A DNA stretch of 64,000 bases from the NCBI GenBank assembly GCA_963764165.1, contig CAVXRD010000001.1, positions 192,001 to 256,000 on the forward strand, read 5' to 3'. This document shows positions 1 to 20,413 of this stretch, one piece after another. Position 1 is the stretch's first letter, and every line of letters starts with the position of its first letter. A program made the translations under genes and the position numbers. This stretch comes from an uncultured Verrucomicrobiae bacterium. GTDB taxonomy: Bacteria; Verrucomicrobiota; Verrucomicrobiia; Limisphaerales; Palsa-1400. The notes beneath the pieces were generated by a model. That model had not been told where the DNA came from. It saw only the letters and a list, made by a program, of their open reading frames with translations, and made no database searches.

Positions 1-34
1 CATAGTCAACAATCCCATCTGGAGATCGTGAGGC

Positions 35-579: not shown

Positions 580-1200
580 AATGTCCACTCTTGCACAGCG
601 CATCACCGGCAGATGCACAATGTACATGCAATAACTGTAACCGCCTATTGCCATTAAGACGCGATTCTCGTAAAAGCGTTTCGGAATTCCATGCAGCGCG
701 GTGGGATCGATTGACCAAAACAAAAGGGCAGAGAAAAATATCGCCAAAGCGCTATAAAATAAATCTCTGAGCAGAGGATGATGGATGGGATCAAACCCAC
801 CGGCCGCCAGCGCCGCCAGCAGCAGTCCCGCGATTGCGCCCGCGTATTTGCAAAGCTTTCTTGCTAACCTTTCTCCATTGGGCAGGCGCATCAGCAACGC
901 CAAGAGCGCGCCCGCTGCCAAAGAATCCGCGCGCGTGGGCGTCAAAGTGTATAGAACAAACCAACTCGCCCCACTGGCAGTCAGAATCAATCGCACGACA
1001 ATCTCGCCGAACATTATTCCAAGACAAATCCCAACCAGTTTGCGGTGCGAAAACGAAAAAATCACCAGCGGCCAGATCAAGTAAAATTGCTCTTCCACCG
1101 ACAGCGACCAAAGCGGCATGAGCATTTCTGTCCACTGATCCCACACCTTCTGCATCGCCACCCAAAAATTTGCGGTATAAGTCCAAAGCCATGGCTGTGC
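580..1200 (-). pseudogene. Acyltransferase_3 (OafA/YrhL-like) membrane acyltransferase, internal fragment
   Basis: Motifs LWSLSVEEQFYLIWP and GGYSYCMYIVHLPV. The N-terminus is replaced by the IS110 ORF and the C-terminus runs into the last CRISPR repeat. Confidence 0.85.
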
Positions 1201-2959: not shown

Positions 2960-3292
2960 TCACGGTCCAGGCCATTTTAAACGTTCTCTTAGAGATTCGG
3001 GGACGATCTTGAAAAGTTCCTTGATGCAATTTGTAATAGGACTATGGAGGGCATGAGCAGGATTATTTCCGCGCTCGTAGAAAATTCGAGCTTGTGAATT
3101 CAGCCAGTCAATATCGTACTCCGTAAAGTCGGCATTAAGCAATAGTCGTGGCAGATTATGCACCAATTCCATTTCAGGGTAGAGGGAACCATACGTAAAG
3201 CGTTTCCACGCCGTGTGAGTTTGCAAATTCCGCATCGCCGGAAGCATCCGATCAAGAATTCCAAGATAAAGTTCCTGTTTTTGCGTTAACAT
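2960..3292 (-). CDS. Putative immunity protein for the ParB-like toxin tip
   Basis: 110-aa lower-GC ORF starting 7 bp after the toxin stop. Positional inference only. Confidence 0.65.
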   Translation of the reverse strand: MLTQKQELYLGILDRMLPAMRNLQTHTAWKRFTYGSLYPEMELVHNLPRLLLNADFTEYDIDWLNSQARIFYERGNNPAHALHSPITNCIKELFKIVPESLRERLKWPGP

Positions 3293-3299: not shown

Positions 3300-4283
3300 T
3301 TATGGTTGCGTCATCTTATAGGTCGTCGATGGAGAGCCTTGGTCCCAGCTTCCTGTGCTTAGAAAATCGTTTATGTATTTCGGATTGCCCGTCTTCGCGT
3401 AAAACATTAACGCAGCCGTCATCCGGTGATTTCCTTCGCTGATAATATAACGATTACCGCTTTTGTAGCCGCCAATCGTCGGGATAGCCGAACGGTCCTT
3501 GGGCGTGCTGCCGTACTCAGAAGGAACATTTCTCACGGGTTTTCCCGCAGCCATATCTTCTAGCAATTGCGGAATTTGATCAAACTTCTGCGCATCCAAA
3601 CCAGATTGCATTGATTCAACATCGACCCCGGGAGGAGCTTGGACTTCAAGCGGGAATTGGGGCGGCGGCACCGGGACGTTTGCTGATGGTGGTTGCGCCC
3701 CTGCATTTTGCACAGCAGTTGCATATCTGAAACCCATGTTCACCCCCCAAAGAGCAGTAACAATCATGGTGGCCGAAGCGACTTTTTGGTTGTAAGTAGC
3801 ATTCGGACTTAAGAGTATCGGGCCAAAGGCCCCAACGCCATAACCTGCACCAAATGCGCTCGCACCGGCAGCAAAACCCGGGAAAGCCACCCCTAGTGGG
3901 CCAAGCACTCCGCCAACACCTGCGCCGATTAAAACTTCTTGAAGCGTAACTACTCGACCTTGAGCCTCAGCATTAACCCCTGCGGATAGTCCTCCGATGG
4001 TAGCGCCGATTCCAACTGAAACTAGCACGTCGGCTAAGTCATGCCCACTGGGGTCCATGTGATTTGCCGGATTGGCTTCGCAGTAGAGGTATTTATGAAG
4101 GCCCAACGGGTCGGTTTGGGTGCCCTCGTCGGTATCCATCGTGATACCGGCGACGTATGCGATTTTTCCCGCCGAAGCCCCGGCGTCGTAGGCCCCCTGG
4201 CCCGCCCGCGTGAGCGCGTGCGCGTTGGACGGGGAAAGCCCGCCCAGGAGAACGGCTAAAAGAATGGACAGCCAGCGATGCAC
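3300..4283 (-). CDS. Signal peptide + Rhs core C-terminal motif + Gly-rich segment + ParB/Srx-like toxin tip
   Basis: GTG start at 4283, by comparison with 11840. Contains RWLSILLAVLLGGLSPSNAHA, MDTDEG..LHKYLYCEANPANHMDPSG and YIISEGNHRMTAA. Confidence 0.8.
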   Translation of the reverse strand: MHRWLSILLAVLLGGLSPSNAHALTRAGQGAYDAGASAGKIAYVAGITMDTDEGTQTDPLGLHKYLYCEANPANHMDPSGHDLADVLVSVGIGATIGGLSAGVNAEAQGRVVTLQEVLIGAGVGGVLGPLGVAFPGFAAGASAFGAGYGVGAFGPILLSPNATYNQKVASATMIVTALWGVNMGFRYATAVQNAGAQPPSANVPVPPPQFPLEVQAPPGVDVESMQSGLDAQKFDQIPQLLEDMAAGKPVRNVPSEYGSTPKDRSAIPTIGGYKSGNRYIISEGNHRMTAALMFYAKTGNPKYINDFLSTGSWDQGSPSTTYKMTQP

Positions 4284-4329
4284 GTCGGCGGCGATTTTAC
4301 GGGGAGAACGGCCCGGAGGCGAGGCTGAT

Positions 4330-5526
4330 TTATTCCCCCTCGGCCAGAGCCTCGGCGTCCAGCGCGGCCAGCAACTCAGCCCTGGCCGTGAGATCGACGG
4401 CGGGTGCGGCTGCGCCTGGCGTGGTTTCCGGCGCGTTGCTCGGCGCGATAAAGTTGAACTCCGCTTGCGCATCCGGCGCGGCGGTTGCGCTCTCAGGAGT
4501 GGGTGCCTGTTCGCTGTGATTGGGTGAAGGCTCCGCCTTCATTTTAGCGGGATGAAAACGATCATGCACCAACTTGAGATGGGCGATGGCGACATGGGTG
4601 TACACGCGCGTGCTCTCCAAAGAGGAATGACCGAGCATGGCCTGGATGTAGCGAATGTCGCAGCCCGCCTCCAAAAGCTGCGTGGCCATCGTGTGGCGGA
4701 ACAAGTGGCAACTGCCCCGGCGCGTGATGCCGGCGGCGCGAAAGATGTAGCGCACCTGCGAGCCAAGCCGGTTGGGATTGACTCGCACGCCCTTGGTATT
4801 CACGAACACGGCGGATTCGGCCACGGCGGAACAAAGCAGCGGTCGCGCTTCCAGCAGGTATTTTTCCAGCCACTGCAAGGCCCGCTCGCCAATCGGCACC
4901 ACCCGGTCTTTGCCGCCCTTGCCCTGCTCAATCCAGACAAAGCCCCGGTCAAAGTCCACGTCGCCTTTGTTGAGTTGACAGAGTTCGGCCCGGCGCATTC
5001 CGGTCGAATAGAGGACTTCCAGCGCGGCCCGGTTGCGCAACCCGGTGGGCTTGGCGAGATCAGGCACGTTCAACACCGATTCGATTTCAGCGGGCGAAAG
5101 CAGCGCATGGGGCAAACGCCGCGAGGTGCGCCCGTACTCGAGATCGCTGGCCGGATTGTAAAGTATAAGGCTTTGCTTGGTCAGCCAGCCGAAAAAACTG
5201 GCGATGATGCTGACGGCGTGATTCTGCGTCTCGACCGCCAGCGGCTCGCCGTCCTTTTTCCGGTAGTGGTAAAGGTAGGACTGATAATTGAAGATGACGG
5301 CGCGTGTGACCTGGCGGGCCTGGGTCAGCCCGGCCTGCTCGCAGAACGAACGGAAGGGCCGCAGCATTTTGCTGCGCGTGTAAACCGTCTGCGGCGAAAA
5401 GTGATGCACGCGCAAGTGTTCCAGGTAGCGGGCCATGAGGTAAAGCAGCCCCTGCGGGTCTTCATGCTCGGAAGGCTTATGACGCGACAGGTCTTGCTCG
5501 GCTAGATGGGCGTAATAGGTTCTCAC
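4330..5526 (-). CDS. Tyrosine recombinase (XerC/D-like), copy A
   Basis: LYSTGMRRAEL, GKGGKDR, HLFRH and LGHSSLESTRVYT: full catalytic set. Confidence 0.95.
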   Translation of the reverse strand: MRTYYAHLAEQDLSRHKPSEHEDPQGLLYLMARYLEHLRVHHFSPQTVYTRSKMLRPFRSFCEQAGLTQARQVTRAVIFNYQSYLYHYRKKDGEPLAVETQNHAVSIIASFFGWLTKQSLILYNPASDLEYGRTSRRLPHALLSPAEIESVLNVPDLAKPTGLRNRAALEVLYSTGMRRAELCQLNKGDVDFDRGFVWIEQGKGGKDRVVPIGERALQWLEKYLLEARPLLCSAVAESAVFVNTKGVRVNPNRLGSQVRYIFRAAGITRRGSCHLFRHTMATQLLEAGCDIRYIQAMLGHSSLESTRVYTHVAIAHLKLVHDRFHPAKMKAEPSPNHSEQAPTPESATAAPDAQAEFNFIAPSNAPETTPGAAAPAVDLTARAELLAALDAEALAEGE

Positions 5527-5658
5527 CGTTTTTTCTTTAGTTGTCCTCTCTTACGGCTGTTAAACCACTAACAACTAAAGAGATAAGAGCGTCACGGACG
5601 GCTGACGATTTCATGACGAAGCGTGACGAAAGATGTTTTTGGGATGACGATTTCCCCT

Positions 5659-8496
5659 TCATGCTGACGATTTCTCTTCGTAGCCGGGCATGTCCGCCGA
5701 CTGCGGCTCCGGCCCGGTGTAGGCCAGTTCATAAGTGAAGCGGGCGGCGGTGCCTGGCAGCCGATGGCACAGGACGTATTCGAGGCTGACCAGCCGTTCC
5801 AGATGGCGGCGCACCTGCGCTTCGCCCCATTTCAACTGCTCGCGCATCTCGCGCCGGGTGAGCCGGACGCGCTCCGATGGCATTTTCTTTTCCTCAGCCA
5901 CTTTCTTGACCAGGCTGTGCAACACCGAAAGGAAGGCCCGCGTCGGCGGCGCCAGTTCGTCCAGGCTGCGCCCCATCACGCCCGCCGCCAGTTGCTGCGC
6001 CTGGCGCAAGTCCTCCTGATCGGCCTCGATGTATTGCACCACCTGGCCCCGGTGCTCGCAGCTTTTGACCGGCTTCTGGAACTGGCGCAAAAAGGCAATG
6101 GCCCGGATGAGTCCAAGATATTTCTTGTGGTCGCGGCGCAGGCGCAGGCGGTCGCTCGGAAAGCGCAGCGTCTCGGCAAACGGGATAATCACTTTCAGCG
6201 GTCGCAACAGCCGTTGGGCCGCGTGATGGGTCGCCAGCACGGCTTGCTTGTCGAGCCTGGAGAGCAGGCCCCGGAGCGTTTCGCTCTGGCGCTGGGCGTC
6301 GTGGATGCGCTGCGTTTGCTCGCGCTCCTCGTCCACCGAAAGCACCAAAAAGCGGTTGGCCAGCTCCTCGTCGAACTCGGCCTGCGTGCTGGTCATGAAC
6401 TGCGCCACCGGGCCTTCCACCGTTTTCAACTGCGTGCGCGGCATTCCGCCGTCCGGGTCTTTGACCGTCACGGCCAGCACCAGCTTTTTCTCGCTCTGCA
6501 AAATCTTGAGCGGATAGGCGGCGCTCTGGCTGCCCTCGTCCTCAACGACCGCCAGAACCTTGTGCTTCAACCCGTTTTCGGGAAGATAAAACAACGCCTG
6601 GGTGGTCATGGCCGTCAATGCCTCCTTGTCCTCGTCGGGCACAAAGTCAAGTATAGCGTTCAAGAGCGAGGATTTTCCGGCGGCGCTGCGGGCCACGATG
6701 AGGCCGGAAAGCGGGTCGTCCAGCTTGCGGCTGATGGCGATGAGGTAGCCCAAAAGCTTGTTGGTGTCCTCGCCCACCGTCCCGGCCAGCGCGAAGTCGG
6801 CCACGATGCGTTCCAAAAGCTTCGGCTCGCGCAACAGGGCCAGCGCCTTCATTTCCTCCTCCGGCGTCATGACGGGTGCGCCGGTGGCCGTGGCTTTCAT
6901 GCGTTCGATGATCTGCTTTTGCTGGTGTTCCTCCACCCGCACCAGGAGCTTGCTCAACTCGGCTTCGACGGTGTTCTTGTCCAGCCCGGCGACCTGCGCG
7001 GCCACGCTGGCAAAGCTGGCGCGGGCGCGGGCCTGGTAAAGATCGAGCGTGTCAACGTGCATGGCGTCATGCCGGATGAGGCGCAGATTGACCTTGAGGC
7101 TGTCAAAACTCGTATTGCTTGACAGTCCCCGGACGCGATAGACGCGGTCGCCTGCGCAGAGTTCGGCCACGCCATCGGGCAACATCTGAAAGCAAGCGGT
7201 GCTTGCATCCATTGCGCCTGATGGCGCAGGCGCTGCGCCGTTGCGTTCCGGCGTGTGTGCGCCGTTTGCTGACAGTGGCGCGATTTTCGGTGCCTGCAGA
7301 TCCACTGCGCCTGGCGGCGCGGGTTGGGCTGCGATTGCCTGGGCCGGTTCCGGCTCGGCTAAAGGAACAACCTGAATGGCGCTGACAACGTTCACCGGCA
7401 GCAGGCGGTAACTCTTGGCAAAGCATGAGGCCAGATCGCCTTTGGCGTCCTTGGATTGCCTCACCAAATCGTTGGCATCGGACTGGCGCGGCCATTCCAC
7501 CCGCCACGCCTCGATGCCCGCCGCTTCCAACTGGTGCGCCAGTTCGTTGGCGGCCGTGTTGCCTGGCTCGTCGCTGTCATAGCAGATCGTCACCCGGTCG
7601 GGACGGCACGCTTTCAACAGTTCCCAATGGCCGGGCGTGAACCCCCGGACGCCATAGCTCCAGGTCACGCTCTCGAACCCGTGGACGTAAAGGCTCAAGG
7701 CGTCAATGGCCGCTTCGCACAAAAGCCATTCGCGTTTGCCATGCAGTCCCGCCGCGTTCCACACCCCGCTGTGCTTTCCCGGCAGGTAAAGGTGCGGGCA
7801 GGCGTTGCGCACGGGCGCGGTGATGCGCCGCCCATACATTTCGCCGATGCCAGCCGTGGTGAGGACCGGGAACACGACGCATCCGGTCAGGTGCTCGTGG
7901 CCGCTCTCGCGCAGGATGCCCAGCCGCTGCAGCCGGTCGCGCAACGCCTTTCCCGCGCTCGTCCCTTCGGGCGGCAGCCGGTAGGCCAGCGTGCGGTTGG
8001 CGTAACCCAAACGAAAATGTTTGACAGATTCGGGGTGAAAGCAGCCCCGCTTTTGCAGGTATTGCATGGCGGCGGGCTGGTTCAAAAAGGTCTGGTGGTA
8101 AAAGTCGGCCACGCGCAAGAGCAGTTGGGCGTCGGTCACTTCCTCGCCGTCGCCGACCAGGCTGGCGTATTGCTTGCCCGATTTCGTTTTGACAGTCCCG
8201 GCCAGCGGCGTCCTGCCCTCCATTTCCAGCAGCCGCTCCACCGCCCGGCGGAAGGCGATTTTCTCCAGGCGCATGACCAGGTCAATGACGCTGCCCCCGC
8301 CGCAGCCAGCCAGGCAGTTCCACAGGTTTTTCTCCGGCGTGACGATGAACGAGGGTGTTTCGTCCTGATGGAACGGGCAGCGCGCCGCCAGGTCTTTGCC
8401 GTGCTTCTCCAGCTTGAGGCCGTAATGCTCGCAGAGGCGGGTCAGCGCAAACTCCGTTTTGAGCCGGGCCACTTCCTGTTCGCTAATCCATTTCAT
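5659..8496 (-). CDS. DNA primase: CHC2 zinc finger + TOPRIM + P-loop NTPase/helicase-like domain, copy A
   Basis: CPFH...CLAGC zinc finger, CEAAIDA and YDSDEPG TOPRIM motifs, ARSAAGKS Walker A. Start set at MKWISE by comparison with copy B. Confidence 0.92.
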   Translation of the reverse strand: MKWISEQEVARLKTEFALTRLCEHYGLKLEKHGKDLAARCPFHQDETPSFIVTPEKNLWNCLAGCGGGSVIDLVMRLEKIAFRRAVERLLEMEGRTPLAGTVKTKSGKQYASLVGDGEEVTDAQLLLRVADFYHQTFLNQPAAMQYLQKRGCFHPESVKHFRLGYANRTLAYRLPPEGTSAGKALRDRLQRLGILRESGHEHLTGCVVFPVLTTAGIGEMYGRRITAPVRNACPHLYLPGKHSGVWNAAGLHGKREWLLCEAAIDALSLYVHGFESVTWSYGVRGFTPGHWELLKACRPDRVTICYDSDEPGNTAANELAHQLEAAGIEAWRVEWPRQSDANDLVRQSKDAKGDLASCFAKSYRLLPVNVVSAIQVVPLAEPEPAQAIAAQPAPPGAVDLQAPKIAPLSANGAHTPERNGAAPAPSGAMDASTACFQMLPDGVAELCAGDRVYRVRGLSSNTSFDSLKVNLRLIRHDAMHVDTLDLYQARARASFASVAAQVAGLDKNTVEAELSKLLVRVEEHQQKQIIERMKATATGAPVMTPEEEMKALALLREPKLLERIVADFALAGTVGEDTNKLLGYLIAISRKLDDPLSGLIVARSAAGKSSLLNAILDFVPDEDKEALTAMTTQALFYLPENGLKHKVLAVVEDEGSQSAAYPLKILQSEKKLVLAVTVKDPDGGMPRTQLKTVEGPVAQFMTSTQAEFDEELANRFLVLSVDEEREQTQRIHDAQRQSETLRGLLSRLDKQAVLATHHAAQRLLRPLKVIIPFAETLRFPSDRLRLRRDHKKYLGLIRAIAFLRQFQKPVKSCEHRGQVVQYIEADQEDLRQAQQLAAGVMGRSLDELAPPTRAFLSVLHSLVKKVAEEKKMPSERVRLTRREMREQLKWGEAQVRRHLERLVSLEYVLCHRLPGTAARFTYELAYTGPEPQSADMPGYEEKSSA

Positions 8497-8918
8497 GGTG
8501 CTTGCGCACGGCCACCATTGAAGGAAACCCATTCGCCGGTTTTCGGGTTCCAGCATCCCCGCAGCCCGTCGGTGTCAAGAAGATGATGCCAGCGTCTTTC
8601 AGCGGTCGCGGGCGAACGGAGCGCGAGCTTGATCATGCGCTGGCCCCGGTCGTACCAGCCGCAGAGTGATTTAAGCCGGTCGTCCCATCCGTGCTGATAG
8701 GCTTCGCGCACGGTCAACCGTCCCAAGGCCGCCAGTTCCTTGCCCACGCCCGCCGCCAGCGCGTCCCGCTCCCAATCGTCCCAGGGATAATGGCCGTAAC
8801 TGCATTCGAGGACTTCCGAACCGAAGATGTCCAGCGGTCGCCGGAACTTTTTCATGGTGGGCCGTGGTCTGGCCAAACCCGTCAAGCCTGTTTCGGAAGA
8901 TTTTGACATGAGGCGCAT
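8493..8918 (-). CDS. Hypothetical protein, copy A
   Basis: Stop overlaps the primase start (ATGA). Protein is identical to 16101..16526. Confidence 0.7.
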   Translation of the reverse strand: MRLMSKSSETGLTGLARPRPTMKKFRRPLDIFGSEVLECSYGHYPWDDWERDALAAGVGKELAALGRLTVREAYQHGWDDRLKSLCGWYDRGQRMIKLALRSPATAERRWHHLLDTDGLRGCWNPKTGEWVSFNGGRAQAP

Positions 8919-8927
8919 TTAGCGGTA

Positions 8928-8958
8928 TTTCGTATAACTGTGCAAGCACTTTCGTATA
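8928..8958. promoter_or_regulatory. Candidate operator in the divergent promoter between the primase operon and the XRE gene
   Basis: TTTCGTATA direct repeat at 8928 and 8950 (22-bp spacing); also present in unit B. Confidence 0.4.
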
Positions 8959-8987
8959 TTTCGCCAGATTGCCTTTATGATTCGGAG

Positions 8988-9359
8988 ATGACAACGGGAC
9001 GACCCGCATCGAAACCCCGCACTGTGTTGGGCCAGCGCATCTCCGAGGCTCGCCAGTTGGCTGGCCTGACTCAGCAGGCACTTGCCGACAAGGTCAACGT
9101 GTCTCAGCGCGTGATCGCCTACTGGGAGCGCGAAGCTGTTTCTTTGAGGGCAGACCAAATTAATGCTCTTGCCAGTGCGCTCAATGTGACGGCAGATGCT
9201 CTCCTGGGGCGCAAAGCCCCTCGCGGCGGCGGGCCGGTCGGAAAAGCACGGCGCATGTTTGAAGAAGTAAATAAACTGCCGCGTGACCGACAACAGCATG
9301 TTCTGCGCGTGGTCGAAGATCTGTTGAAAGCCAACCGTCCTGAAAAAGCAGCCGCTTAA
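8988..9359 (+). CDS. XRE-family HTH transcriptional regulator, copy A
   Basis: LGQRISEARQLAGLTQQALADKVNVSQRVIAYWE. Confidence 0.92.
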   Translation: MTTGRPASKPRTVLGQRISEARQLAGLTQQALADKVNVSQRVIAYWEREAVSLRADQINALASALNVTADALLGRKAPRGGGPVGKARRMFEEVNKLPRDRQQHVLRVVEDLLKANRPEKAAA

Positions 9360-9666
9360 ACGCCCGCCCCGTCCCCCGGGCAGTGGCGGAGTAGTGGGCG
9401 GATTCTGGGCGAGTAGTCAAGGATTGTGGCCCTGCCGCTTGACGGTCTGCCGGGCCTGTGCCATTGTCTCACCGTTGGAGCGATTGAAGAACGGCTTTGG
9501 TGTGTTTCCTTGGACGCCCGCGAGCGTCAGGTAAAGTTGTGATGCGTTTCTAAGTCTCCTCTCTTGTGTGGCCCGTGCGGCCTTTTCCCCGTTGGGGTTT
9601 TTTAACTGTTGGTTTCCAGCCTGGGCGCGGGTGCGTCCGGGCCTTGGTGACCCGCCGACTCGTGTG

Positions 9667-10185
9667 ATGCAAACGCCCGAAGCCTATCAGATTGGACGCA
9701 TTGGCTGGCAACTCTTTGGCACGCTGACTTTCAAGTCCGAGCGCCTGCCGGAAAGAGTTCGCCTGGCCATGTGGTTCGCTTATGCCCGTCAAACCGGCAA
9801 AAGGCTTGGGGTCAAGTTTCACCGCCTCCTGTGGTGCCTGCGCCAGGAACAAGGCGAGATCGGCGGACGCAGGCATTTTCATTATTTGATGGCAGAGCTT
9901 CCCCATGAGCAACTCTGCCCGGCGCTGAACTTCGAGCTGATGGCCCTCTGGCAATCGCTCGGCGGCGGCTGGGCCAGGGTGGCGCGTTACCGCAACGACC
10001 TCGACGGCGTCGGCTACGTGCTCAAGGGCCTGGGCTACGCTTCCGAAGCGGAGCAGCATTACGAGATGCGCAAGTTCGGAAGCCAGCGCTGCCACCTCAT
10101 TCTGTCGAACTCGGTGTGGCGCACCCTCCATCGAGCAAACCTCGGACGCCATCGCTCAGCGGCGGCTTCCGGGGCCATTCGGTAA
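9667..10185 (+). CDS. HUH endonuclease / rolling-circle Rep-like protein, allele A
   Basis: Motif I FGTLTF, motif II RHFHYL and motif III YVLK, in Rep order. Confidence 0.75.
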   Translation: MQTPEAYQIGRIGWQLFGTLTFKSERLPERVRLAMWFAYARQTGKRLGVKFHRLLWCLRQEQGEIGGRRHFHYLMAELPHEQLCPALNFELMALWQSLGGGWARVARYRNDLDGVGYVLKGLGYASEAEQHYEMRKFGSQRCHLILSNSVWRTLHRANLGRHRSAAASGAIR

Positions 10186-10287
10186 CAGAGAGGCCGTCGG
10201 GCACAACCTTGGGCAATCGCTCAGTTGTGACACTTCGAGCGGGCCCTGCCGGGGGAGCGGCGCGTCAGCGCCGCCCCCCGGCGGGTT

Positions 10288-10448
10288 GCTTGAAGACCCA
10301 CTATGTACAGACCCGGTCAACCACCCTGGCGGTCGGATGCCAAAAGCCTGGCCGACACGGCTAAAAAGGAAAATGGCCACGCCCTTGCGTGGCCCTGCTC
10401 ACCCCCCATTCCCAAACAACTAGCCCAGCGGCAATGAGCGATTCAAAA
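10288..10448. repeat. Conserved ~160-bp non-coding block, copy 2, preceded by a GC hairpin at 10245-10285
   Basis: Direct comparison with 2727-2883 and 18235-18395. Confidence 0.9.
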
Positions 10449-10467
10449 TCCGGCGCGAAGCGTCCGA

Positions 10468-10962
10468 TTAAAAAAAAGGGGCAACAAAAACGATTGGCAC
10501 AAATATGAGAATGCTCAAGCCAAAAGCCAAAAGACAGTAAGGAACCCAGTGGAGAGTTTCGGACCGTAATGGTAAGTTACGCCTCGAAGTCAACAAAAAT
10601 CCCAAGAGAATACAGCAGACACAAACAAATGTTATAATCCCATCAGGAACACGATATAACAAAACACCCGTGACTCCGCCTACGCGCATTGTGCCGAAAA
10701 TGGTATCGTAACGACTACGCAGGTCGGGCTTTAACCAAAATTCAAAAAGCAGCACCACCGCGAGAACACAGATCGCATTCACTAAGAGCAACCCAATTAA
10801 ATGTCGATCCGGATTCTTGTGATTTTGTTGACACTTGATGAAGGCCAGGCAGGAAGTCGCAAAACACACAATGCCTAGGACGTACGAGATGCACGCCCAA
10901 TTCAACCATGCTGGCGCAATCTTCCCAAGCGTGTCATTCATAAGCACTGTGGCTATCATCAA
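10468..10962 (-). CDS. Putative membrane immunity protein (~4 TM)
   Basis: Hydrophobic, low-GC ORF whose start overlaps the toxin stop. Confidence 0.65.
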   Translation of the reverse strand: MMIATVLMNDTLGKIAPAWLNWACISYVLGIVCFATSCLAFIKCQQNHKNPDRHLIGLLLVNAICVLAVVLLFEFWLKPDLRSRYDTIFGTMRVGGVTGVLLYRVPDGIITFVCVCCILLGFLLTSRRNLPLRSETLHWVPYCLLAFGLSILIFVPIVFVAPFF

Positions 10963-11840
10963 GGTCTTTCTCCAAGGCCGGTTTCAAGACCTTGCTCGGT
11001 GCTGTTTGAGAACGGAATCATTTGTTGTGAGCCGGTTGACCAACTGAAACCAGAGAGCGAAAAGGGAAAGCCTTTCATCAGCCCGCCGGACTCATGTTCA
11101 GGAAAGTTCCGAACGCCTGCTCGATTTTCAATTGCATGGACAATCTCGTGCGATGCGATGTTTGCCGTCATAAAGGCATAGCTATTATCGGTTGCGCCGG
11201 TCGGCGCAGCCGCGTTTAAGCCTTTATCGATATTATCGGGATAAAGGTCAACGATGCTACCGTGCGTGTGACCGAGAACGGTGCCGCCACTTACATAGTC
11301 AATAAGGATGTTATATGTGTGCGTAGGTTGATCGAACCCAGCGGACACCCCCGCTGGCAAGCCTCCGTCTATCACCCGCAATTGAGTCGCCCGTTGGTAT
11401 TGTGATATTAAGGCCGATGTTTTCGACAAAATTCGGTCATGCACAGCTCTTTCATTAGCAGTCCCTCCGGGCGAAACATACACATTTACTGTTCCGACAT
11501 TTCCAGCCGTTTCTCGCCAGACGGAACAGACGGTGTGCGTAAACTCGACAGCCACAATAGTTACTAGGGCCGCAACGGTCAAACATTCAGTCAAATCATG
11601 TCCACTTGGGTCAATGTGATTGACGGGGTTTGCCTGGCAATAAAGATATTTATGAAGGCCCAACGGGTCGGTTTGGGTTCCCTCATAGGTATCCATCGTG
11701 ATACCGGCGACGTATGCGACTTTTTCCAACGCAGCCCCGGCGTCGTAGGCGGCCTGGCCCGCCCGCGTGAGCGCGTGCGCGTTGGACGGGGAAAGCCCGC
11801 CCAGGAGAACGGCTAAAAAGATGAACAGCCAGCGCATCAC
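10959..11840 (-). CDS. Signal peptide + Rhs core C-terminal motif + zinc metallopeptidase-like toxin tip
   Basis: MRWLFIFLAVLLGGLSPSNAHA; MDTYEG..LHKYLYCQANPVNHIDPSG; ASHEIVH...HESGGLM. Confidence 0.82.
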   Translation of the reverse strand: MMRWLFIFLAVLLGGLSPSNAHALTRAGQAAYDAGAALEKVAYVAGITMDTYEGTQTDPLGLHKYLYCQANPVNHIDPSGHDLTECLTVAALVTIVAVEFTHTVCSVWRETAGNVGTVNVYVSPGGTANERAVHDRILSKTSALISQYQRATQLRVIDGGLPAGVSAGFDQPTHTYNILIDYVSGGTVLGHTHGSIVDLYPDNIDKGLNAAAPTGATDNSYAFMTANIASHEIVHAIENRAGVRNFPEHESGGLMKGFPFSLSGFSWSTGSQQMIPFSNSTEQGLETGLGERP

Positions 11841-11901
11841 GATGCGGGCGATTTTAACGGGAAGAGCCGAATGGTTGCGAGCGGATTATTTGAGCGGGCC
11901 G

Positions 11902-13113
11902 CTAGGACGATTCTTCGATGGCTTCGGCTTCCAGCGCGGCCAGCAACTCAGCCCTGGCGGCCAGATCGGGAACGGAAGCGGGCGCGGCTGCGCCTGGGGC
12001 GGCTTCTGGCGCGTTGCCCGGTGCGATAAAGGCGAACTCGCCCTGCGCATCCGGCTTGGCTGCGGGTGGGGCGGTCGCGCTGTCGGTCGCAGTGGGCGCA
12101 GGGACTGCCTGCGGCATCTTGGCGGGATGAAAACGATCATGCACCACCTTGAGATGGGCAATGGCGACGTGGGTATAAACGCGCGTGCTCTCCAAAGAGG
12201 AATGGCCGAGCATGGCCTGGATGTAGCGAATGTCGCAGCCCGCCTCCAAAAGCTGCGTGGCCATCGTGTGGCGGAACAGGTGGCAACTGCCCCGGCGCGT
12301 GATGCCGGCGCTGCGAAAGATGTAGCGCACCTGCGAGCCAAGCCGGTTGGGATTGACGCGCACGCCCTTGGTGTTCACAAACACGGCGGGTTCGGCCACG
12401 GCGGAACAGAGCAGCGGTCGCGCTTCCAGCAGGTATTTTTCCAGCCACTGCAGGGCCCGGTCGCCAATCGGCACCACTCGGTCTTTGCCGCCCTTGCCCT
12501 GTTCTATCCAGACAAAGCCCCGGTCGAAGTCCACGTCGCCCTTGTTAAGTTGACAGAGTTCGGCCCGGCGCATTCCCGTCGAGTAGAGGACTTCCAGCGC
12601 GGCCCGGTTGCGCAACCCGGTGGGCTTGGAGAGATCAGGCACGTTCAACACCGATTCGATTTCAGCGGGCGAAAGCAGCGCGTGCGGCAGGCGGCGCGAG
12701 GTGCGCCCGTACTCGAGATCGCTGGCCGGATTGTAAAGTATAAGGCTTTGCTTGGTCAGCCAGCCGAAAAAACTGGCGATGATGCTGACGGCGTGGTTTT
12801 GCGTCTCGACCGCCAGCGGCTCGCCGTCCTTTTTCCGGTAGTGATAAAGGTAAGACTGATAATTGAAGATGACAGCGCGTGTGACCTGGCGGGCCTGGGT
12901 CAGCCCGGCCTGCTCGCAGAACGAACGGAAGGGCCGGAGCATTTTGCTGCGCGTGTAAACCGTCTGCGGCGAAAAGTGATGCACGCGCAAGTGTTCGAGG
13001 TAGCGGGCCATGAGGTAAAGCAGCCCCTGCGGGTCTTCATGGTGCGAGCCGCACGGGCCTGGCTTATGACGCGACAGGTCTTGTTCGGCCAGATGGGCGT
13101 AATAGGTTCTCAC
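11902..13113 (-). CDS. Tyrosine recombinase (XerC/D-like), copy B
   Basis: Near-identical to 4330..5526 except for a short N-terminal insertion and the low-complexity tail. Confidence 0.95.
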   Translation of the reverse strand: MRTYYAHLAEQDLSRHKPGPCGSHHEDPQGLLYLMARYLEHLRVHHFSPQTVYTRSKMLRPFRSFCEQAGLTQARQVTRAVIFNYQSYLYHYRKKDGEPLAVETQNHAVSIIASFFGWLTKQSLILYNPASDLEYGRTSRRLPHALLSPAEIESVLNVPDLSKPTGLRNRAALEVLYSTGMRRAELCQLNKGDVDFDRGFVWIEQGKGGKDRVVPIGDRALQWLEKYLLEARPLLCSAVAEPAVFVNTKGVRVNPNRLGSQVRYIFRSAGITRRGSCHLFRHTMATQLLEAGCDIRYIQAMLGHSSLESTRVYTHVAIAHLKVVHDRFHPAKMPQAVPAPTATDSATAPPAAKPDAQGEFAFIAPGNAPEAAPGAAAPASVPDLAARAELLAALEAEAIEESS

Positions 13114-13245: not shown

Positions 13246-16104
13246 TCATGCTGACGATTTCCCTTCGTAGCCGGGCATGTCCACCGCCTCCGGCTCCGGC
13301 CCGGCGTAAGCCAGCTCGTAATTGAAGCGGGCGGCGGTTCCTGGCATCCGATGGCACAGGACGTATTCGAGGCTGACCAGCCGTTCCAGATGGCGGCGCA
13401 CCTGCGCTTCGCCCCATTTCAACTGCTCGCGCATCTCGCGCCGGGTGAGGCGAACGCGCTCCGATGGCATTTTCTTTTCCTCGGCCACTTTATTGACAAG
13501 CGTATTCAAGGCGGCGAGGAACGCCCGCGTCGGCGGCGCCAGTTCGTCCAGGCTGCGCCCCATCACGCCCGCCGCCAGTTGCTGCGCCTGGCGCAAGTCC
13601 TCCTGATCGGCCTCGATGTATTGCACCACCTGGCCCCGGTGCTCGCAGCTTTTGACCGGCTTCTGGAACTGGCGCAAAAAGGCAATGGCTCGGATGAGTC
13701 CAAGATATTTCTTGTGGTCGCGGCGCAGGCGCAGGCGGTCGCTCGGAAAGCGCAGCGTCTCGGCAAACGGGATAATCACTTTCAGCGGTCGCAACAGCCG
13801 TTGGGCCGCGTGATGGGTGGCAAGCACCGCCTGCTTGTCGAGCCGGGAGAGCAGCCCCCGGAGCGTTTCGCTCTGGCGCTGGGCGTCGTGGATGCGCTGC
13901 GTTTGCTCGCGCTCCTCGTCCACCGAGAGCACCAAAAAGCGGTTGGCCAGTTCCTCGTCGAACTCGGCCTGCGTGCTGGTCATGAACTGCGCCACCGGGC
14001 CTTCCACCGTTTTCAACTGCGTGCGCGGCATGCCGCCGTCCGGGTCTTTGACCGTCACGGCCAGCACCAGCTTTTTCTCGCTCTGCAAAATCTTGAGCGG
14101 ATAGGCGGCGCTCTGGCTGCCCTCGTCCTCAACGACCGCCAGAACCTTGTGCTTCAAGCCGTTTTCAGGAAGATAAAACAACGCCTGCGTGGTCATGGCC
14201 GTCAACGCCTCCTTGTCCTCGTCGGGCACGAAGTCAAGTATAGCGTTCAAGAGCGAGGATTTACCGGCGGCGCTGCGGGCCACGATGAGGCCGGAAAGTG
14301 GGTCGTCCAGCTTGCGGCTGATGGCGATGAGGTAGCCCAAAAGCTTGTTGGCATCCTCGCCCACCGTCCCGGCCAGCGCGAAGTCGGCCACGATGCGTTC
14401 CAACAGCTTCGGCTCGCGCAACAGGGCCAGCGCCTTCATTTCCTCCTCCGGCGTCATCACCGGTGCGCCGGTGGCCGTGGCTTTCATGCGTTCAATGATC
14501 TGCTTTTGCTGGTGCTCCTCCACCCGCACCAGGAGCTTGCTCAACTCGGCTTCGACCGTGTTCTTGTCCAGCCCGGCGATCTGCGCGGCCACGCTGGCAA
14601 AGCTGGCGCGGGCGCGGGCCTGGTAAAGATCGAGCGTGTCCACATGCATGGCGTCATGCCGGATGAGGCGCAGATTGACCTTGAGGCTGTCAAAGCTCGT
14701 ATTGCTTGACAGTCCCCGGACGCGATACCTGCGGTCGCTGACGGAGAGTTCGGCCACGCCATCGGGCAAGAAGGCGAAGCCTTCACCCACTGCGCCTGAC
14801 GGCGCGGGCGGGCCGTTCGTTCCGTTTGTTGACAGTGGCGCGACTCTCGGCGCGTGCAAATCCACTGCGCCAACAGCGGCGCTTGGCGCTGGGCAGGCGG
14901 GGCTTGCATCCACTGCGCCTGGCGGCGCGGGTTGGGCTGCGATTGCCTGGGCCGGTTCCGGCACGGCTAAAGGAACAACCTGAATGGCGCTGACCACATT
15001 GGCTGGCAGCAAGCGATAGCTCTTGGCGAAGCATGAGGCCAGATCGCCTTTGGCGTCCTTGGATTGCCTCACTAAATCGTTGGCATCGGACTGGCGCGGC
15101 CATTCCACCCGCCACGCCTCGATGCCCGCCGCTTCCAACTGGTGCGCCAGTTCATTGGCGGCCGTGTTGCCTGGCTCGTCGCTGTCGTAGCAGATCGTCA
15201 CCCGGTCGGGACGGCACGCTTTCAACAGTTCCCAATGGCCGGGCGTGAACCCTCGAACGCCATAGCTCCAGGTCACGCTCTCGAACCCGTGGACGTAAAG
15301 GCTCAAGGCGTCAATGGCCGCTTCGCACAAAAGCCATTCGCGTTTGCCATGCAGTCCCGCCGCGTTCCACACCCCGCTGTGTTTGCCCGGCAGGTAAAGA
15401 TGCGGGCAGGCGTTGCGCACGGGCGCGGTGATGCGCCGCCCATACATTTCGCCGATGCCCGCCGTGGTGAGAACCGGGAACACGACGCACCCGGTCAGGT
15501 GCTCGTGGCCGCTCTCGCGCAGGATGCCCAGCCGCTGCAGCCGGTCGCGCAACGCCTTTCCCGCGCTCGTCCCTTCGGGCGGCAGCCGGTAGGCCAGCGT
15601 GCGGTTGGCGTAACCCAAACGAAAATGTTTGACAGCTTCGGGATGAAAGCAGCCGCGTTTTTGCAGGTACTGCATGGCGGCGGGCTGGTTCAAAAACGTC
15701 TGGTGGTAAAAGTCGGCCACCCGCGAAAGCAGTTGGGCGTCGGTCACTTCCTCGCCGTCGCCGACCAGGCTGGCGTATTGCTTGCCCGATTTCGTTTTGA
15801 CAGTCCCGGCCAGAGGCGTTTTGCCCTCCATTTCCAGCAGCCGCTCCACCGCCCGGCGGAAGGCGATTTTCTCCAGGCGCATGACCAGGTCAATGACGCT
15901 GCCCCCGCCGCAGCCAGCCAGGCAGTTCCACAGGTTTTTCTCCGGCGTGACGATGAACGAGGGCGTTTCGTCCTGATGGAACGGGCAGCGCGCCGCCAGG
16001 TCTTTGCCGTGCTTCTCCAGCTTGAGGCCGTAATGCTCGCACAGGCGGGTCAGCGCGAACTCCGTTTTAAGCCGGGCCACTTCCTGTTCGCTAATCCATT
16101 TCAT
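13246..16104 (-). CDS. DNA primase: CHC2 zinc finger + TOPRIM + P-loop domain, copy B
   Basis: Same motifs as copy A; differs mainly in the Pro/Ala linker. Confidence 0.92.
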   Translation of the reverse strand: MKWISEQEVARLKTEFALTRLCEHYGLKLEKHGKDLAARCPFHQDETPSFIVTPEKNLWNCLAGCGGGSVIDLVMRLEKIAFRRAVERLLEMEGKTPLAGTVKTKSGKQYASLVGDGEEVTDAQLLSRVADFYHQTFLNQPAAMQYLQKRGCFHPEAVKHFRLGYANRTLAYRLPPEGTSAGKALRDRLQRLGILRESGHEHLTGCVVFPVLTTAGIGEMYGRRITAPVRNACPHLYLPGKHSGVWNAAGLHGKREWLLCEAAIDALSLYVHGFESVTWSYGVRGFTPGHWELLKACRPDRVTICYDSDEPGNTAANELAHQLEAAGIEAWRVEWPRQSDANDLVRQSKDAKGDLASCFAKSYRLLPANVVSAIQVVPLAVPEPAQAIAAQPAPPGAVDASPACPAPSAAVGAVDLHAPRVAPLSTNGTNGPPAPSGAVGEGFAFLPDGVAELSVSDRRYRVRGLSSNTSFDSLKVNLRLIRHDAMHVDTLDLYQARARASFASVAAQIAGLDKNTVEAELSKLLVRVEEHQQKQIIERMKATATGAPVMTPEEEMKALALLREPKLLERIVADFALAGTVGEDANKLLGYLIAISRKLDDPLSGLIVARSAAGKSSLLNAILDFVPDEDKEALTAMTTQALFYLPENGLKHKVLAVVEDEGSQSAAYPLKILQSEKKLVLAVTVKDPDGGMPRTQLKTVEGPVAQFMTSTQAEFDEELANRFLVLSVDEEREQTQRIHDAQRQSETLRGLLSRLDKQAVLATHHAAQRLLRPLKVIIPFAETLRFPSDRLRLRRDHKKYLGLIRAIAFLRQFQKPVKSCEHRGQVVQYIEADQEDLRQAQQLAAGVMGRSLDELAPPTRAFLAALNTLVNKVAEEKKMPSERVRLTRREMREQLKWGEAQVRRHLERLVSLEYVLCHRMPGTAARFNYELAYAGPEPEAVDMPGYEGKSSA

Positions 16105-16526: not shown

Positions 16527-16595
16527 TTAGCGGTATTTCGTATAACTGTGCAAGCACTTTCGTATATTTCGCCAGATTGCCTTTATGATTCGGAG

Positions 16596-16967
16596 ATGAC
16601 AACGGGACGACCCGCATCGAAACCCCGCACTGTGTTGGGCCAGCGTATCTCCGAGGCTCGCCAGTTGGCTGGCCTGACTCAGCAGGCACTTGCCGACAAG
16701 GTCAACGTGTCTCAGCGCGTGATCGCCTACTGGGAGCGCGAAGCTGTTTCTTTGAGGGCAGACCAAATTAATGCTCTTGCCAGTGCGCTCAATGTGACGG
16801 CAGATGCTCTCCTGGGGCGCAAAGCCCCTCGCGGCGGCGGGCCGGTCGGAAAAGCACGGCGCATGTTTGAAGAAGTAAATAAACTGCCGCGTGACCGACA
16901 ACAGCATGTTCTGCGCGTGGTCGAAGATCTGTTGAAAGCCAACCGTCCTGAAAAAGCAGCCGCTTAA
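16596..16967 (+). CDS. XRE-family HTH regulator, copy B
   Basis: Identical protein to copy A. Confidence 0.92.
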   Translation: MTTGRPASKPRTVLGQRISEARQLAGLTQQALADKVNVSQRVIAYWEREAVSLRADQINALASALNVTADALLGRKAPRGGGPVGKARRMFEEVNKLPRDRQQHVLRVVEDLLKANRPEKAAA

Positions 16968-17273
16968 ACGCCCGCCCCGTTCCCGAGCAGTGGCGAGCAG
17001 TGGGCGGATTCTGGGCGAGTAGTGAAAGGATGGTGGCCCCGCCGCTTGACGGTCTGCCGGGCCTGTGCGATTGTCCCACCGTTGGAGCGATTGAAAACGG
17101 CTTTGATGTGATTCCTTGGACGCCCGCGAGCGTCAGGTAAAGTTGTGATGCGTTTCTAAGTCTCCTCTCTTGTGTGGCCCGTGCGGCCTTTTCCCCGTTG
17201 GGGTTTTTAACTGTTGGTTTCCAGCCTGGGGCGCGTGTGCGCCTTGGGCCGGAACCATTCGCATTGCCGTTTT

Positions 17274-18128
17274 ATGCTCGCGCCTTTTGAAGTTATTGGC
17301 CACCGCGTCCAGGCCGCCGCCGGACACGGCGCTTTGTCGTTTGAACGGGTGCTGGTCCTGGCGGACGCGGACCCGTTCTGCCCGTTGCGCCAGACAGTGG
17401 ATTACGCCCTGTCGCCGGATGAGGCCGGGCTTCCCGCTGGCCAGTGGCTGGGCCGCGTCCTGCTCCTGGGCATCCATGACATGGCCACCGGCTACGGCGG
17501 GCGCTTGCGCTTCGAGGGCCGCATCATGGGGGCGCAAACTCAGCGCGAGAACCTGGCGGCGCTGCCCGCCCCGGCCCACACCGGCACGCCCCGCCGCCGT
17601 TCCTTGGAAAGCCCCGATCTGCTCATGCTCTGCGGCGAGGCCTGGCAGTTCTTTGGCACGCTCACCTTCAAGCAGGAGCGGCTGCCGGAGCGCGTGCGCC
17701 AGTCCATGTTCAACGCCGCCTTCCGCCAACTGGCCAAAGAACTGCATCTCTATTTTCCCCGTTTGGCCTGGTGCCGCCGGGAAGAGCTGGGCGAGCAGTT
17801 GGGGCGGCGGCATTATCACTTTCTGTTGACAGGACTCCCGGCCCGGGCCGCGAACATCTCCACCTGCTTTTTTCTCATGCACGCATGGGAGAAGATCGGC
17901 GGCGGGATGGCGCGTGTCCGGCTGTACAACCAGGGGCAGGACGGCCTGGCGTACATCACGAAGTGCCTCCACGGCGGCGACGCCTACGAGACTTCCAAGT
18001 TCGCGGAGGGCCTGTCACACCTCACGCTCTCAGACGGGTTGCAGCGCATGTTGCGCTCCCGTCCAGTGATGGGAGAGAGGCGTCTTGCACAACGCGACAC
18101 GCCGACAGCGGGCGGCTTTCCTGCGTAG
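17274..18128 (+). CDS. HUH Rep-like protein, allele B, with an extra ~105-aa N-terminal region
   Basis: FGTLTF, RHYHFL and YITK motifs; ATG at 17274. Confidence 0.75.
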   Translation: MLAPFEVIGHRVQAAAGHGALSFERVLVLADADPFCPLRQTVDYALSPDEAGLPAGQWLGRVLLLGIHDMATGYGGRLRFEGRIMGAQTQRENLAALPAPAHTGTPRRRSLESPDLLMLCGEAWQFFGTLTFKQERLPERVRQSMFNAAFRQLAKELHLYFPRLAWCRREELGEQLGRRHYHFLLTGLPARAANISTCFFLMHAWEKIGGGMARVRLYNQGQDGLAYITKCLHGGDAYETSKFAEGLSHLTLSDGLQRMLRSRPVMGERRLAQRDTPTAGGFPA

Positions 18129-18234
18129 GGAAACGCTCTCTGGCAGCAAGGCCAATGGCCGGTTGTGACTTCCAAGCGGTTCCTGGGGGGCGGGCGGAGC
18201 GGCGCGTCAGCGCCGCTCGCCCGTCCCACAGGTT

Positions 18235-18395
18235 GCTTGAAGACCCACTATGTACACACCCGGTCAACCACCCTGGCGGTCGGATGCCAAAAGCCGGACC
18301 CAGCACGGCTAAAAAGGAAAATTGCCACGCCCTGCGTGGCCCTGCTCATCCCCCATTCCCAAACAACTAGCCCAGCGGCAATGAGCGATTCAAAA
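18235..18395. repeat. Conserved ~160-bp non-coding block, copy 3, preceded by a GC hairpin at ~18186-18228
   Basis: Direct comparison with the other two copies. Confidence 0.9.
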
Positions 18396-18438
18396 ATGGC
18401 GCGAACAAGTCGAAAATCAAACGGCTTATGTTTGACGG

Positions 18439-18981
18439 TCAACCGCCAAGACTTTTTGCCAGTTGAGCCACTCGATAGTCTTCCATCAGGCTGAGGCAAA
18501 CTTCCTCCATCGGTGGAAAGTCTATTGTAAACAAAGGTCGCAGGGCGTTGGCAAAATCAGGTAAGGTCAAATCGCCAAAGCCAGTGGCCAACGCCGTTAA
18601 GGTCACTTTTTTAGCTGCCAGTTCCGCCGCCATCCGCAAAGCCGTGGCAATGGTTTCTTGAACGCTTTCCGGCGTCGCGTGATACCAGCCGTCCACCGCC
18701 ACCGCATGAAGCACCGCCTTATAGGGAAGCTCCGACCCGGAATACGCAATCACTTCACCGAACCGGGCGGCGCGTGGCGTCCGTCCTGCAATGACCTTGT
18801 GCAATTCGGCCTGCATCCGTGGCCCATATCGCCCCAGCAAATCCGCCCCCACGCCGCCGGAAAGATTCAACGAGACGTTGGCCGAGCAAATCAGCACGTC
18901 CGCTGGCTCGTCCAAAATGTTGCACGCCTTTAACGTCCATCTGATGAACTTCGGCTGAAAAGTTGCGGTCGCTGCTTGCAA
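18439..18981 (-). CDS. Macro domain protein (ADP-ribose binding/hydrolase fold)
   Basis: ADVLICSANVSLNLSGGVGADL, VLHAV and TALATGFG match macrodomain signatures. Confidence 0.85.
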   Translation of the reverse strand: MQAATATFQPKFIRWTLKACNILDEPADVLICSANVSLNLSGGVGADLLGRYGPRMQAELHKVIAGRTPRAARFGEVIAYSGSELPYKAVLHAVAVDGWYHATPESVQETIATALRMAAELAAKKVTLTALATGFGDLTLPDFANALRPLFTIDFPPMEEVCLSLMEDYRVAQLAKSLGG

Positions 18982-19299
18982 TTAGCCCTCAACCGCAAAA
19001 GTGATGGTTTTGACCGCTTCAGTCAGAACAACAGCTTGCGTTGAGCGAGCAACCCCCGCCGTTTGCCCCTTGGCCAACTTGAGAACAATGTGGCTGAATG
19101 GCTCGCCCGGATTTTCAGATTCCCGAAACCCAACCTCTGCGTCGTCAGGGACATCAAGCACCGACCCAATTTGTACCCCCGACGGAACCAATGCGGCTGG
19201 CAGCAGAATGGTTACTGGCTCATTAGCCGTTAGCCGCAGTCCCTTCGGCCAGCCAAACGCTTTGTTTGACTCAATCTGAACTGTGCGGGCTTGATTCAT
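18982..19299 (-). CDS. Hypothetical protein, putative orphan immunity
   Basis: Translationally abutting ORF in the post-toxin cassette. Confidence 0.6.
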   Translation of the reverse strand: MNQARTVQIESNKAFGWPKGLRLTANEPVTILLPAALVPSGVQIGSVLDVPDDAEVGFRESENPGEPFSHIVLKLAKGQTAGVARSTQAVVLTEAVKTITFAVEG

Positions 19300-19491
19300 T
19301 TAATTGCCTCCCGAAAGATACCGTATATCATCCGGCATCACTCCCTGTTGTTGCGTGACATACTCTGTCCAAAATGACCTTGGAAATTCTTGCACATTCG
19401 ACAATTTGGACGGACTGACAACTGCTGCTGCGCCAATATTCTGACTGCTCCCGGCGAGATCATCAATGGATGCCTGCTGTAACTTTGTCAA
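19300..19491 (-). pseudogene. Possible remnant of the 3' end of a toxin tip
   Basis: Short ORF with no convincing start, ending immediately before 18982..19299. Confidence 0.35.
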
Positions 19492-20413
19492 CCTCGAGTC
19501 CCTTTAACAGCTTCGGTGCAACATCAAAAAACCTTCGAATAAAAATTATCGCGTAATCACACGCGCTTTCCACCTCGTCATTTGTAAGATACTCCCATTC
19601 CGTCGGTCCGACCCCAAGCCATGAACAAAAAGATATATTCTGTTGCATGGACAAACACTTGCTGTATGTACCCTTCGTGGCTGGAAATAAAAACATATTC
19701 TCGCTGAAAATATCGTGGGAATATTCAATCACCGCATCATCTCGACCAAAGTGAAAATTTGTGCTTACAATCCATCCTCCAATACTTGTTTCAAAATGTG
19801 GCTCTGGATCATTAAGCTGCCAGTCTAATATCCTTTGGTTTTTAAATGTGCTTCTGAATTTTCCCAACATCTGCTTACGGAGCATTTTCCTGCTGGCGAA
19901 GCTGATTTTTTCGCCAGCAGCTCGTCGTGCCGCAATTTGCTCTTCAAATGTTTGAGGAATGGAGGCAACAATAGGCTCAATTTTTGACAGAATGGCGTTA
20001 TCATCGTCCACGTAGATTTCCCCGATGAATTTCTCAAAATCCGGCCGACACATCTGAAATACCGTTAGCGCCTCGGCTGCTTTTCCCTCTCTTTTGAGCC
20101 GTAGCACGTGCCGATATAGCCCTTTGATTCGAAAAATATTATCACACTGCAACAGCAAAAGCTCGTCACTTTGAGAACACTTATCGCCCAAGTCCTGAAC
20201 CACGTTACAAAAATTTCTCCTAAGAAGTCCATCAATCAAGGTCAACTGCTGCGTCCTGTTCAGTTGTGTAATAAATTGACTTACCTCCCAAACGATCCCG
20301 GACTTAAACAACCGAAGATTGGAAAACGACAAGTCAATCTCGTTCCGCCATTCACTGGCAGCCCATAAGTAAAATCGAACTTGAAACTCGCGGCGCGCTT
20401 CTGAAAACGTCAT
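19463..20413 (-). CDS. Putative immunity protein for the Rhs REase-fold tip
   Basis: Low-GC 316-aa ORF (MTFSEARREF) starting 16 bp after the rhs stop. Confidence 0.65.
   Translation of the reverse strand: MTFSEARREFQVRFYLWAASEWRNEIDLSFSNLRLFKSGIVWEVSQFITQLNRTQQLTLIDGLLRRNFCNVVQDLGDKCSQSDELLLLQCDNIFRIKGLYRHVLRLKREGKAAEALTVFQMCRPDFEKFIGEIYVDDDNAILSKIEPIVASIPQTFEEQIAARRAAGEKISFASRKMLRKQMLGKFRSTFKNQRILDWQLNDPEPHFETSIGGWIVSTNFHFGRDDAVIEYSHDIFSENMFLFPATKGTYSKCLSMQQNISFCSWLGVGPTEWEYLTNDEVESACDYAIIFIRRFFDVAPKLLKGLEVDKVTAGIH

Follow-up and report, generated by a model that had tools for sequence, protein, structure and literature searches.

Introduction

Orphan toxin tips are generally regarded as silent spares that have neither a start nor an export signal. 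Outside the Rhs field, SXT/R391 ICEs integrate within the gene prfC and give its cut-off 3' part a new 5' end. SXT restores one housekeeping gene, whereas the element described here, which has no conjugation genes, provides one half of the interrupted gene with a new 3' end and equips the other with a 5' end that bears a signal. In integrons, a tyrosine recombinase stacks modules at a single site as a cassette array; our element differs in having no attC-type cassettes, in carrying its integrase inside each unit, and in yielding protein fusions at the junction.

In the circle model of Jackson et al. (2009; PMC2935791), as far as its available text goes, a circle with a new tip integrates and the old tip is shunted downstream, with no integrase named. 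Classical orphan Rhs-CT/immunity modules (PMC2935791; PMC3967940, available portions) are likewise pairs of core-remnant tip and immunity gene downstream of the main rhs, but the remnants at our locus begin at a fixed palindromic site, are adjoined by an integrase, and are supplied with a start and a signal. Rhs-associated integrases lie by toxin–immunity arrays in Snodgrassella and Gilliamella, where orphans are transcribed and non-silent (Steele et al., 2017; PMC5727410), and XerC/D genes stand beside polyimmunity loci (Zhang et al., 2012; PMC3482391), near toxin–immunity arrays as here. Neither an attachment site nor the structure of an element nor a leader with a signal is described in the available portions of these two papers, and the terms 'signal peptide' and 'primase' have no occurrence in the available text of the former; Additional File 1 of the latter may show such XerC/D neighbourhoods. 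Proteobacterial XerC–primase–HTH–SymE units beside rhs have the same gene order as our element, primases 35–47% identical to ours, and tips with immunity genes; SymE is present there and was not seen in our elements. We found no published description of the element or of its leader in a literature search of mainly open-access main texts. An integrase, an exact crossover site, and a replacement 5' end, found together, make the questions of orphan silence and tip displacement testable.

A tandem integrase/primase element carries the leader

We analysed a 64,000-nt stretch of DNA (the window), in which the leader is the terminal part of a tandem integrase/CHC2-primase element of ~7.6 kb. Along the minus strand, the stack begins with a 5'-truncated Rhs with tip A, followed by Imm A and cargo, an end sequence, and body 2. 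Next come the leader with tip B, Imm B, an end sequence, body 1, the leader with tip C, and Imm C, and the stack finishes with an end sequence, a truncated third body, a transposase-like ORF (which we take to be IS110-like), and a CRISPR array. From this order of parts, the unit consists of tip, immunity gene, body, and leader.

Each body reads, along the minus strand, rep-like ORF, HTH, CHC2/Toprim primase, and integrase. In body 2 these are a rep-like ORF (17214-18128, plus strand; PF23343, under the curated cut-off), an XRE-type HTH regulator (16548-16967, plus strand), a CHC2 zinc finger/Toprim primase-like protein (13246-16104, minus strand), and a tyrosine integrase (11902-13113, minus strand; PF00589, E 6e-44, and PF13495), the last marking the unit as an integrative element. 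Body 1 (4330-10185, minus strand; integrase at 4330-5526) has the same four genes and is 93% identical to body 2 across 5.7 kb. A match of a rep-like ORF to HopA1 was sub-threshold and was taken as noise. Virion and conjugation genes were absent from the element body ORFs scanned, so that the element qualifies neither as a prophage nor as a conjugative ICE. The primase had no match among 50,697 phage records, and nothing was found in the viral contigs scanned for the element.

Conserved element ends, all on the minus strand, lie after Imm B (10280-10450), past the tip A cargo (18225-18400), and at the third, truncated element (2720-2900). Each holds one copy of a DNA motif treated below, at 10357-10366, 18305-18314, and 2795-2804, respectively. 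This end of ~170 nt is much more conserved than the adjoining rep-like ORF and may be an origin or a structured RNA. A terminator-like hairpin follows Imm B (10375-10394), but it is weak evidence by itself, since the scan found 5 such hairpins versus 5.7 in shuffled sequences.

The host Rhs frame with tip A (20430-24473, minus strand) is followed by the Imm A candidate (19463-20413, minus strand). Its 5' part, cut off by other mobile DNA (24357-26652) that includes an IS (25544-26652) with 29-nt inverted repeats, could not be located in the genome. The interval from Imm A to the element end (18439-19491) holds a Macro-domain gene, a 105-aa ORF that recurs in locus L029, and a fragment with a match to the C-terminal end of another tip (P0024).

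Two orphan tips share a leader

Two minus-strand ORFs (10959-11840, copy B; 3300-4283, copy C) each consist of a 47-codon leader that runs into an Rhs core remnant (T-M-D...D-P-S-G), and then diverge into unrelated tips. A first-pass annotation had noted that both tips share a leader of ~47 aa that is element-encoded, in frame with the core, and placed directly after the integrase, and all of this held. The copies are not identical (85% identity over the first 80 aa; copy C begins MHRWLSILL), and the leader starts 61 nt (copy B) or 46 nt (copy C) past the integrase stop. The annotated span, 11647-11840, takes in half of the core as well as the leader, which itself occupies 11700-11840.

In copy B (all minus strand), the predicted Sec/SPI signal peptide (11772-11840; GTG at 11840, ATG at 11837) ends in A-H-A, and is followed by an element-encoded linker of 24 aa between the predicted cleavage site and the crossover (11700-11771), by the core remnant (11601-11699, a weak TIGR03696 match), and by tip B (10959-11600), with a hydrophobic stretch and, as a lead only, a HExxH metallopeptidase-like domain. 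The Imm B candidate (10468-10959) has four predicted membrane helices. Copy C has the same layout on the same strand, namely, a predicted signal peptide (4215-4283; GTG at 4283), linker (4143-4214), core remnant (4044-4142), tip C with a Gly-rich hydrophobic region up to the ORF end at 3300, and a soluble Imm C candidate (2960-3292). The stop codon of tip B overlaps the ATG of Imm B (TGATG), and Imm C starts 7 nt past the stop codon of tip C. Translational coupling of the leader–tip B ORF to Imm B is plausible from this arrangement.

Tips B and C therefore have the make-up of orphan Rhs-CT modules, with a core remnant, a variable tip, and an immunity-like gene downstream. Classical orphans are without a start and an export signal; here the GTG/ATG is conserved and the leader is signal-like. 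The reading of both as displaced tips agrees with this make-up but needs one amendment: because each tip is followed by an immunity-like ORF and then an element end, B and C are the cargo of earlier elements and not the host's original tip.

The putative crossover junction and tip swapping

The putative recombination core is an inverted repeat, GGTATC-ACGATG-GATACC, at 11688-11705 in copy B and at 4131-4148 in copy C (both minus strand), extending in copy C to 9 of 10 matching positions. Its 6-bp spacer encodes the Thr-Met codons of the Rhs core. The Rhs-side core, TTTTGG-ACGATG-GATACC (21051-21068, minus strand), shares the spacer and right arm only, and its left arm is not palindromic. Inverted arms around a spacer of 6-8 bp, as we define a core site, are thus present at the junctions.

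The leaders of L027 and L029 are identical, and the two sequences part immediately past the inverted repeat. Among 29 leader–tip sequences, five pairs have leaders at least 95% identical with tips 16-23% identical, and two pairs have an identical tip behind leaders 67-70% identical. In addition, the tip of the host's classical orphan shares 74% identity with one that elsewhere is preceded by the leader. This swap pattern at the junction is, at the level of sequence, as expected for site-specific integration of a circle, and the element fits the circle model of Jackson et al. (2009) as given in the available text.

For the window's own element, neither a circle nor an empty site was seen. An 11.3-kb circular record (L097, NZ_CP072857.1) has two tip–immunity–SymE–HTH–primase units and one XerC; it is possibly a free form of the element family, or it may be a collapsed tandem repeat. 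In one protein (P0023), the leader is joined at T-M-D to an upstream stretch of Rhs shell with the full core retained, suggesting insertion at a secondary site.

The leader is conserved as a signal-like, in-frame sequence

The first 23 leader residues read as a Sec signal ending in A-H-A. By a rule written for this analysis (net basic n-region, an uncharged 8-mer of mean hydropathy at least 2, and a small-x-small site), the leader has the basic n-region, uncharged h-region, and A-x-A c-region of a Sec/SPI signal. The rule was passed by 23 of 24 homologous leaders; for comparison, the host genome gave 421 passes among 1912 ORF N-termini and 49 among 1912 internal 40-mers. The result bears out the annotated basic n-region, hydrophobic core, and AHA-type site. 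All 24 homologous leaders retain the hydrophobic core. In 22 aligned leaders, Ala was found at −1 in all 22 and at −3 in 21, with six different residues at −2, and substitutions in the h-region columns were uncharged only, with no charge anywhere. The leader protein search, with an 82-aa query, gave 51 matches among 85 candidates; 23 of them had a query coverage of 98% or more, and the tips varied. In Atlas features, the leader match was below 0.9, with no named signal cluster. Origin as a copy of the host Rhs signal was considered and rejected; in the genome, the leader matches only the two element copies.

The leader frame is open in all nine DNA copies and in 24 proteins at ~22% non-synonymous divergence, although the close copies are mutually related and were mostly found via the leader protein, which favours intact frames. 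Non-triplet indels sit in the spacer, and the leader has one −1/+1 pair, in the listed rows of contigs aligned by DNA likeness. The dN/dS of the leader, 0.61, is the lowest of the six frames but stands well above that of the integrase (0.11); by part, it is 0.78 for the signal and 0.49 for the linker. In five elements with both genes, pS was lower in the leader (0.20) than in the integrase (0.32).

We also mutated one copy neutrally to the observed distances. The signal rule was kept by all eight compared copies in 0 of 5000 runs when any column could change, and in 0.02% of runs when changes were limited to variable columns; all copies stayed open in 0.04-0.06% of runs. These figures overstate the case, because the null takes related copies as independent and the copies were mostly found via protein. 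Under the stricter null (variable columns only), A-x-A alone gave 0.078, which is not significant.

The suggested check on homologues thus came out mixed, with an open frame in every close copy and a comparatively high dN/dS. Frequent loss of frame, named beforehand as evidence against the leader, was not seen among the close copies; distant relatives, with their out-of-frame and signal-less leaders, show such evidence in part (see below). Conservation of the signal across homologues is upheld by the A-x-A site and the uncharged core, but part of the conservation is at the DNA level. We regard it as confirmed, on sequence comparison, that the leader is a real, conserved, signal-like, in-frame part of a tip-swapping integrative element.

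A DNA motif lies within the leader

The motif TTTTAGCCGT is located in the h-region, in the L-A-V codons, of copy B (11809-11818) and copy C (4252-4261), both on the minus strand. It occurs once per leader and once per element end sequence. Matches numbered seven, versus 0.78 expected. A looser TTTTAGCCGT was found close to the stop codon of the integrase at 19 of 42 loci, signal-less ones included, and in 0 of 42 control stretches. The motif encodes the invariant L-A-V using the rare codon TTA (2.9% of Leu). It is likely an integrase arm or regulator site, and the conservation of L-A-V is therefore uninformative about the peptide. A AAAACTCGCGTC-like word (K/E-T-R-V if in frame) was observed between integrase and tip, with or without a signal, in L016-L019, L024, L062, L064-L068, and L071.

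Expression signals ahead of the leader

A −10-like hexamer, TANNNT, lies 10 nt ahead of the GTG in copy B (11851-11856, minus strand) and also precedes copy C (4294-4299, minus strand). It is found 9-10 nt upstream of the GTG in all nine close copies, whose boxes show five variants of the middle, and two distant genomes have it at 10 nt. TANNNT-type boxes mark leaderless genes, according to the available part of PMC3160421. Among 2053 starts in the host, the peak for leaderless genes falls at a gap of 6 nt (84 starts) and not of 10 nt (16 starts), so the leader transcript would carry a few untranslated bases. No Shine-Dalgarno sequence was evident before the leader, and a consensus scan upstream of it gave no sigma-70 promoter.

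Leaders in the wider element family

We collected 40 loci by integrase alone, leaving out our own copies, L014, and L022, and classed their leaders by eye. Ten loci in six genomes have another signal-like leader in frame with the tip; five of these pass the rule, four identical copies in genome G750 miss the cleavage clause, and one lies beyond the scored range. In L013, two signal-like leader ORFs are located further away. An in-frame leader with no signal was found at seven loci and a shifted or stopped leader at five; three loci run directly into the Rhs remnant, and 14 are unclassed. The distant leaders gave no alignment to the leader of the window (probability 0.4%, in a mixed 7-row alignment). 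The integrase tree intermixes lineages with and without a signal, a distribution that calls for more than one gain or more than one loss.

A second leader family has 66 members, 65 of them with a basic n-region and a hydrophobic core and none with A-x-A; from its sequence it may be an anchor. Toxin-type domains, mostly nucleases, were detected in 11 of 22 scanned members, 12 of which had been chosen for an earlier Pfam label. Leader–tip–immunity cassettes without element bodies are stacked in L030, L031/L032, and G750. In the last (L082:4204-8921), a stack of three tip cassettes comes after the element's own leader–tip, and these have a second signal-like leader unrelated to the first.

The window's leader type is rare across the searched genomes: it was found at full length in the host genome (G000) and G237 only among 401 genomes of the order, with a 45-nt match in G276, and in G000 only among 401 genomes of the phylum; these counts are a lower bound on the breadth of the family. 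Several named relatives of the element are Verrucomicrobiota, and related primases occur in 35 plasmid records. Two tip-bearing proteobacterial records that we read have no signal leader.

Tips, core remnant, and host Rhs

Pfam domains were found in 6 of 27 leader–tip proteins (AHH, GIY-YIG, REase-9, M35, and RolB/C-like), and tips B and C had no Pfam match. The HExxH motif of tip B comes with a lead that is matrixin-like (score 0.89), and among 1276 candidates the tip had no homologue except itself. A single-sequence fold of the leader–tip B protein was unusable (pLDDT 38.7). A hydrophobic stretch, present in 13 of 29 tips, could act as a transfer stop at the inner membrane. In the Rhs aspartyl autoprotease, two catalytic Asp residues inside an intact core fold form a dyad (PMC8765631, available part). 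By motif, the core remnant keeps both Asp positions, with the linker standing where the upstream core would be.

BamA and a TonB-dependent receptor indicate that the host has an outer membrane, so that export by Sec alone would end in the periplasm. Its genome encodes one homologue of TssC as well as five secretins. A second host Rhs is intact (5251 aa; G000:C1:158253-174005); its N-terminus is signal-like, and it contains Ig and RCC1-like domains. After it come a classical orphan, with a HINT + AHH-like tip and a long core remnant, and more Rhs fragments (G000:C1:155418-157652). The full-length Rhs proteins of G000 and G525 begin with signal-like peptides, and that of G525 lies upstream of such an element.

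Discussion

We propose, with middling confidence, that the element gives the displaced pair a new 5' end that keeps its immunity gene expressed, and that Sec takes the tip out of the cytoplasm. The first-pass annotation, which suggested either small exported toxins or immunity genes kept expressed through translational coupling, is thereby supported in part. The element would circularise, joining the leader to its own tip. Integration at the Thr-Met codons of the Rhs core would then give the host Rhs a new tip and sever the old tip–immunity pair from the rhs promoter and start. The leader, with its −10-like box, GTG, and predicted Sec signal, would restart the old pair, and the cell would be safe from kin firing the old tip. 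Sec would deliver the tip into the periplasm or the membrane; there, a nuclease would meet no DNA and would spare the immunity protein. This modest reading alone would provide a mechanism for staying immune to kin following a toxin switch. That seven in-frame leaders have no signal agrees with coupling being the function common to all. The detoxifying step sits less well with tip B, which has a peptidase-like motif and a membrane immunity candidate, so that its export would expose the cell.

The leader might instead turn the displaced tip, and the circle's own tip, into a small weapon that is secreted across the outer membrane and damages neighbours with no Rhs shell, a reading that we consider rather improbable. 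The host Rhs also has a Sec-type signal, five secretins are at hand, and some tips are peptidases (M35, and the HExxH lead); the body-less cassette stacks look as if retained as units, the linker is more constrained than the signal, and signal leaders are absent from the two proteobacterial elements that we read. On the other hand, the 24-aa linker offers no domain for outer-membrane export or target binding, no target entry is encoded, and both the YD shell and the Arg of the host motif R-x-Y-x-P-x-L-G-R-F are missing. Nucleases, which need the target's cytoplasm, make up many of the identified tips, and the hydrophobic stretch of 13 tips could halt transfer at the inner membrane. Broader still, and also rather improbable, is the view that an undescribed, widespread element class drives Rhs tip displacement, and that in hosts whose Rhs is exported by Sec it has repeatedly evolved signal leaders, making each displaced tip a secreted toxin that acts by itself; if so, one cell would field its entire tip history at once.

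Nor does the signal have to be functional. Translation of the leader may serve solely to drive the immunity gene, and the leader's resemblance to a signal would then be a by-product of an arm-site motif that encodes F/L-L-A-V. The position of the motif in the h-region, its rare TTA codon, the signal-less in-frame leaders, and the high dN/dS of the signal all agree with this, but the A-x-A site and the uncharged-only changes fall outside the motif, and other lineages have the motif upstream of a hydrophobic core that is still there; we judge this explanation unlikely. Taken further, the leader would be non-coding attachment-site DNA and the tips silent like classical orphans, which the low pS, the inverted-repeat and motif content, and the five distant loci with decayed leaders would allow. 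Nine DNA copies and 24 proteins without a stop or net frameshift argue against it, as does the stop–start overlap of tip B with Imm B, and we think it very improbable.

Other features near the elements

The CRISPR array adjoining the element stack has 91 spacers (window 31-582; G000:C1:185956-192600). None of the 91 matches the elements beyond chance words of 14-17 nt; one spacer is a self-match to contig C4 (33 of 37 nt), and another is duplicated. Relaxase-like ORFs, presumably TrwC-type, recur near the elements (L029:5796-8783, L083:2998-5976, L086:12582-15467, and window 31886-34798) and could provide their transfer route.
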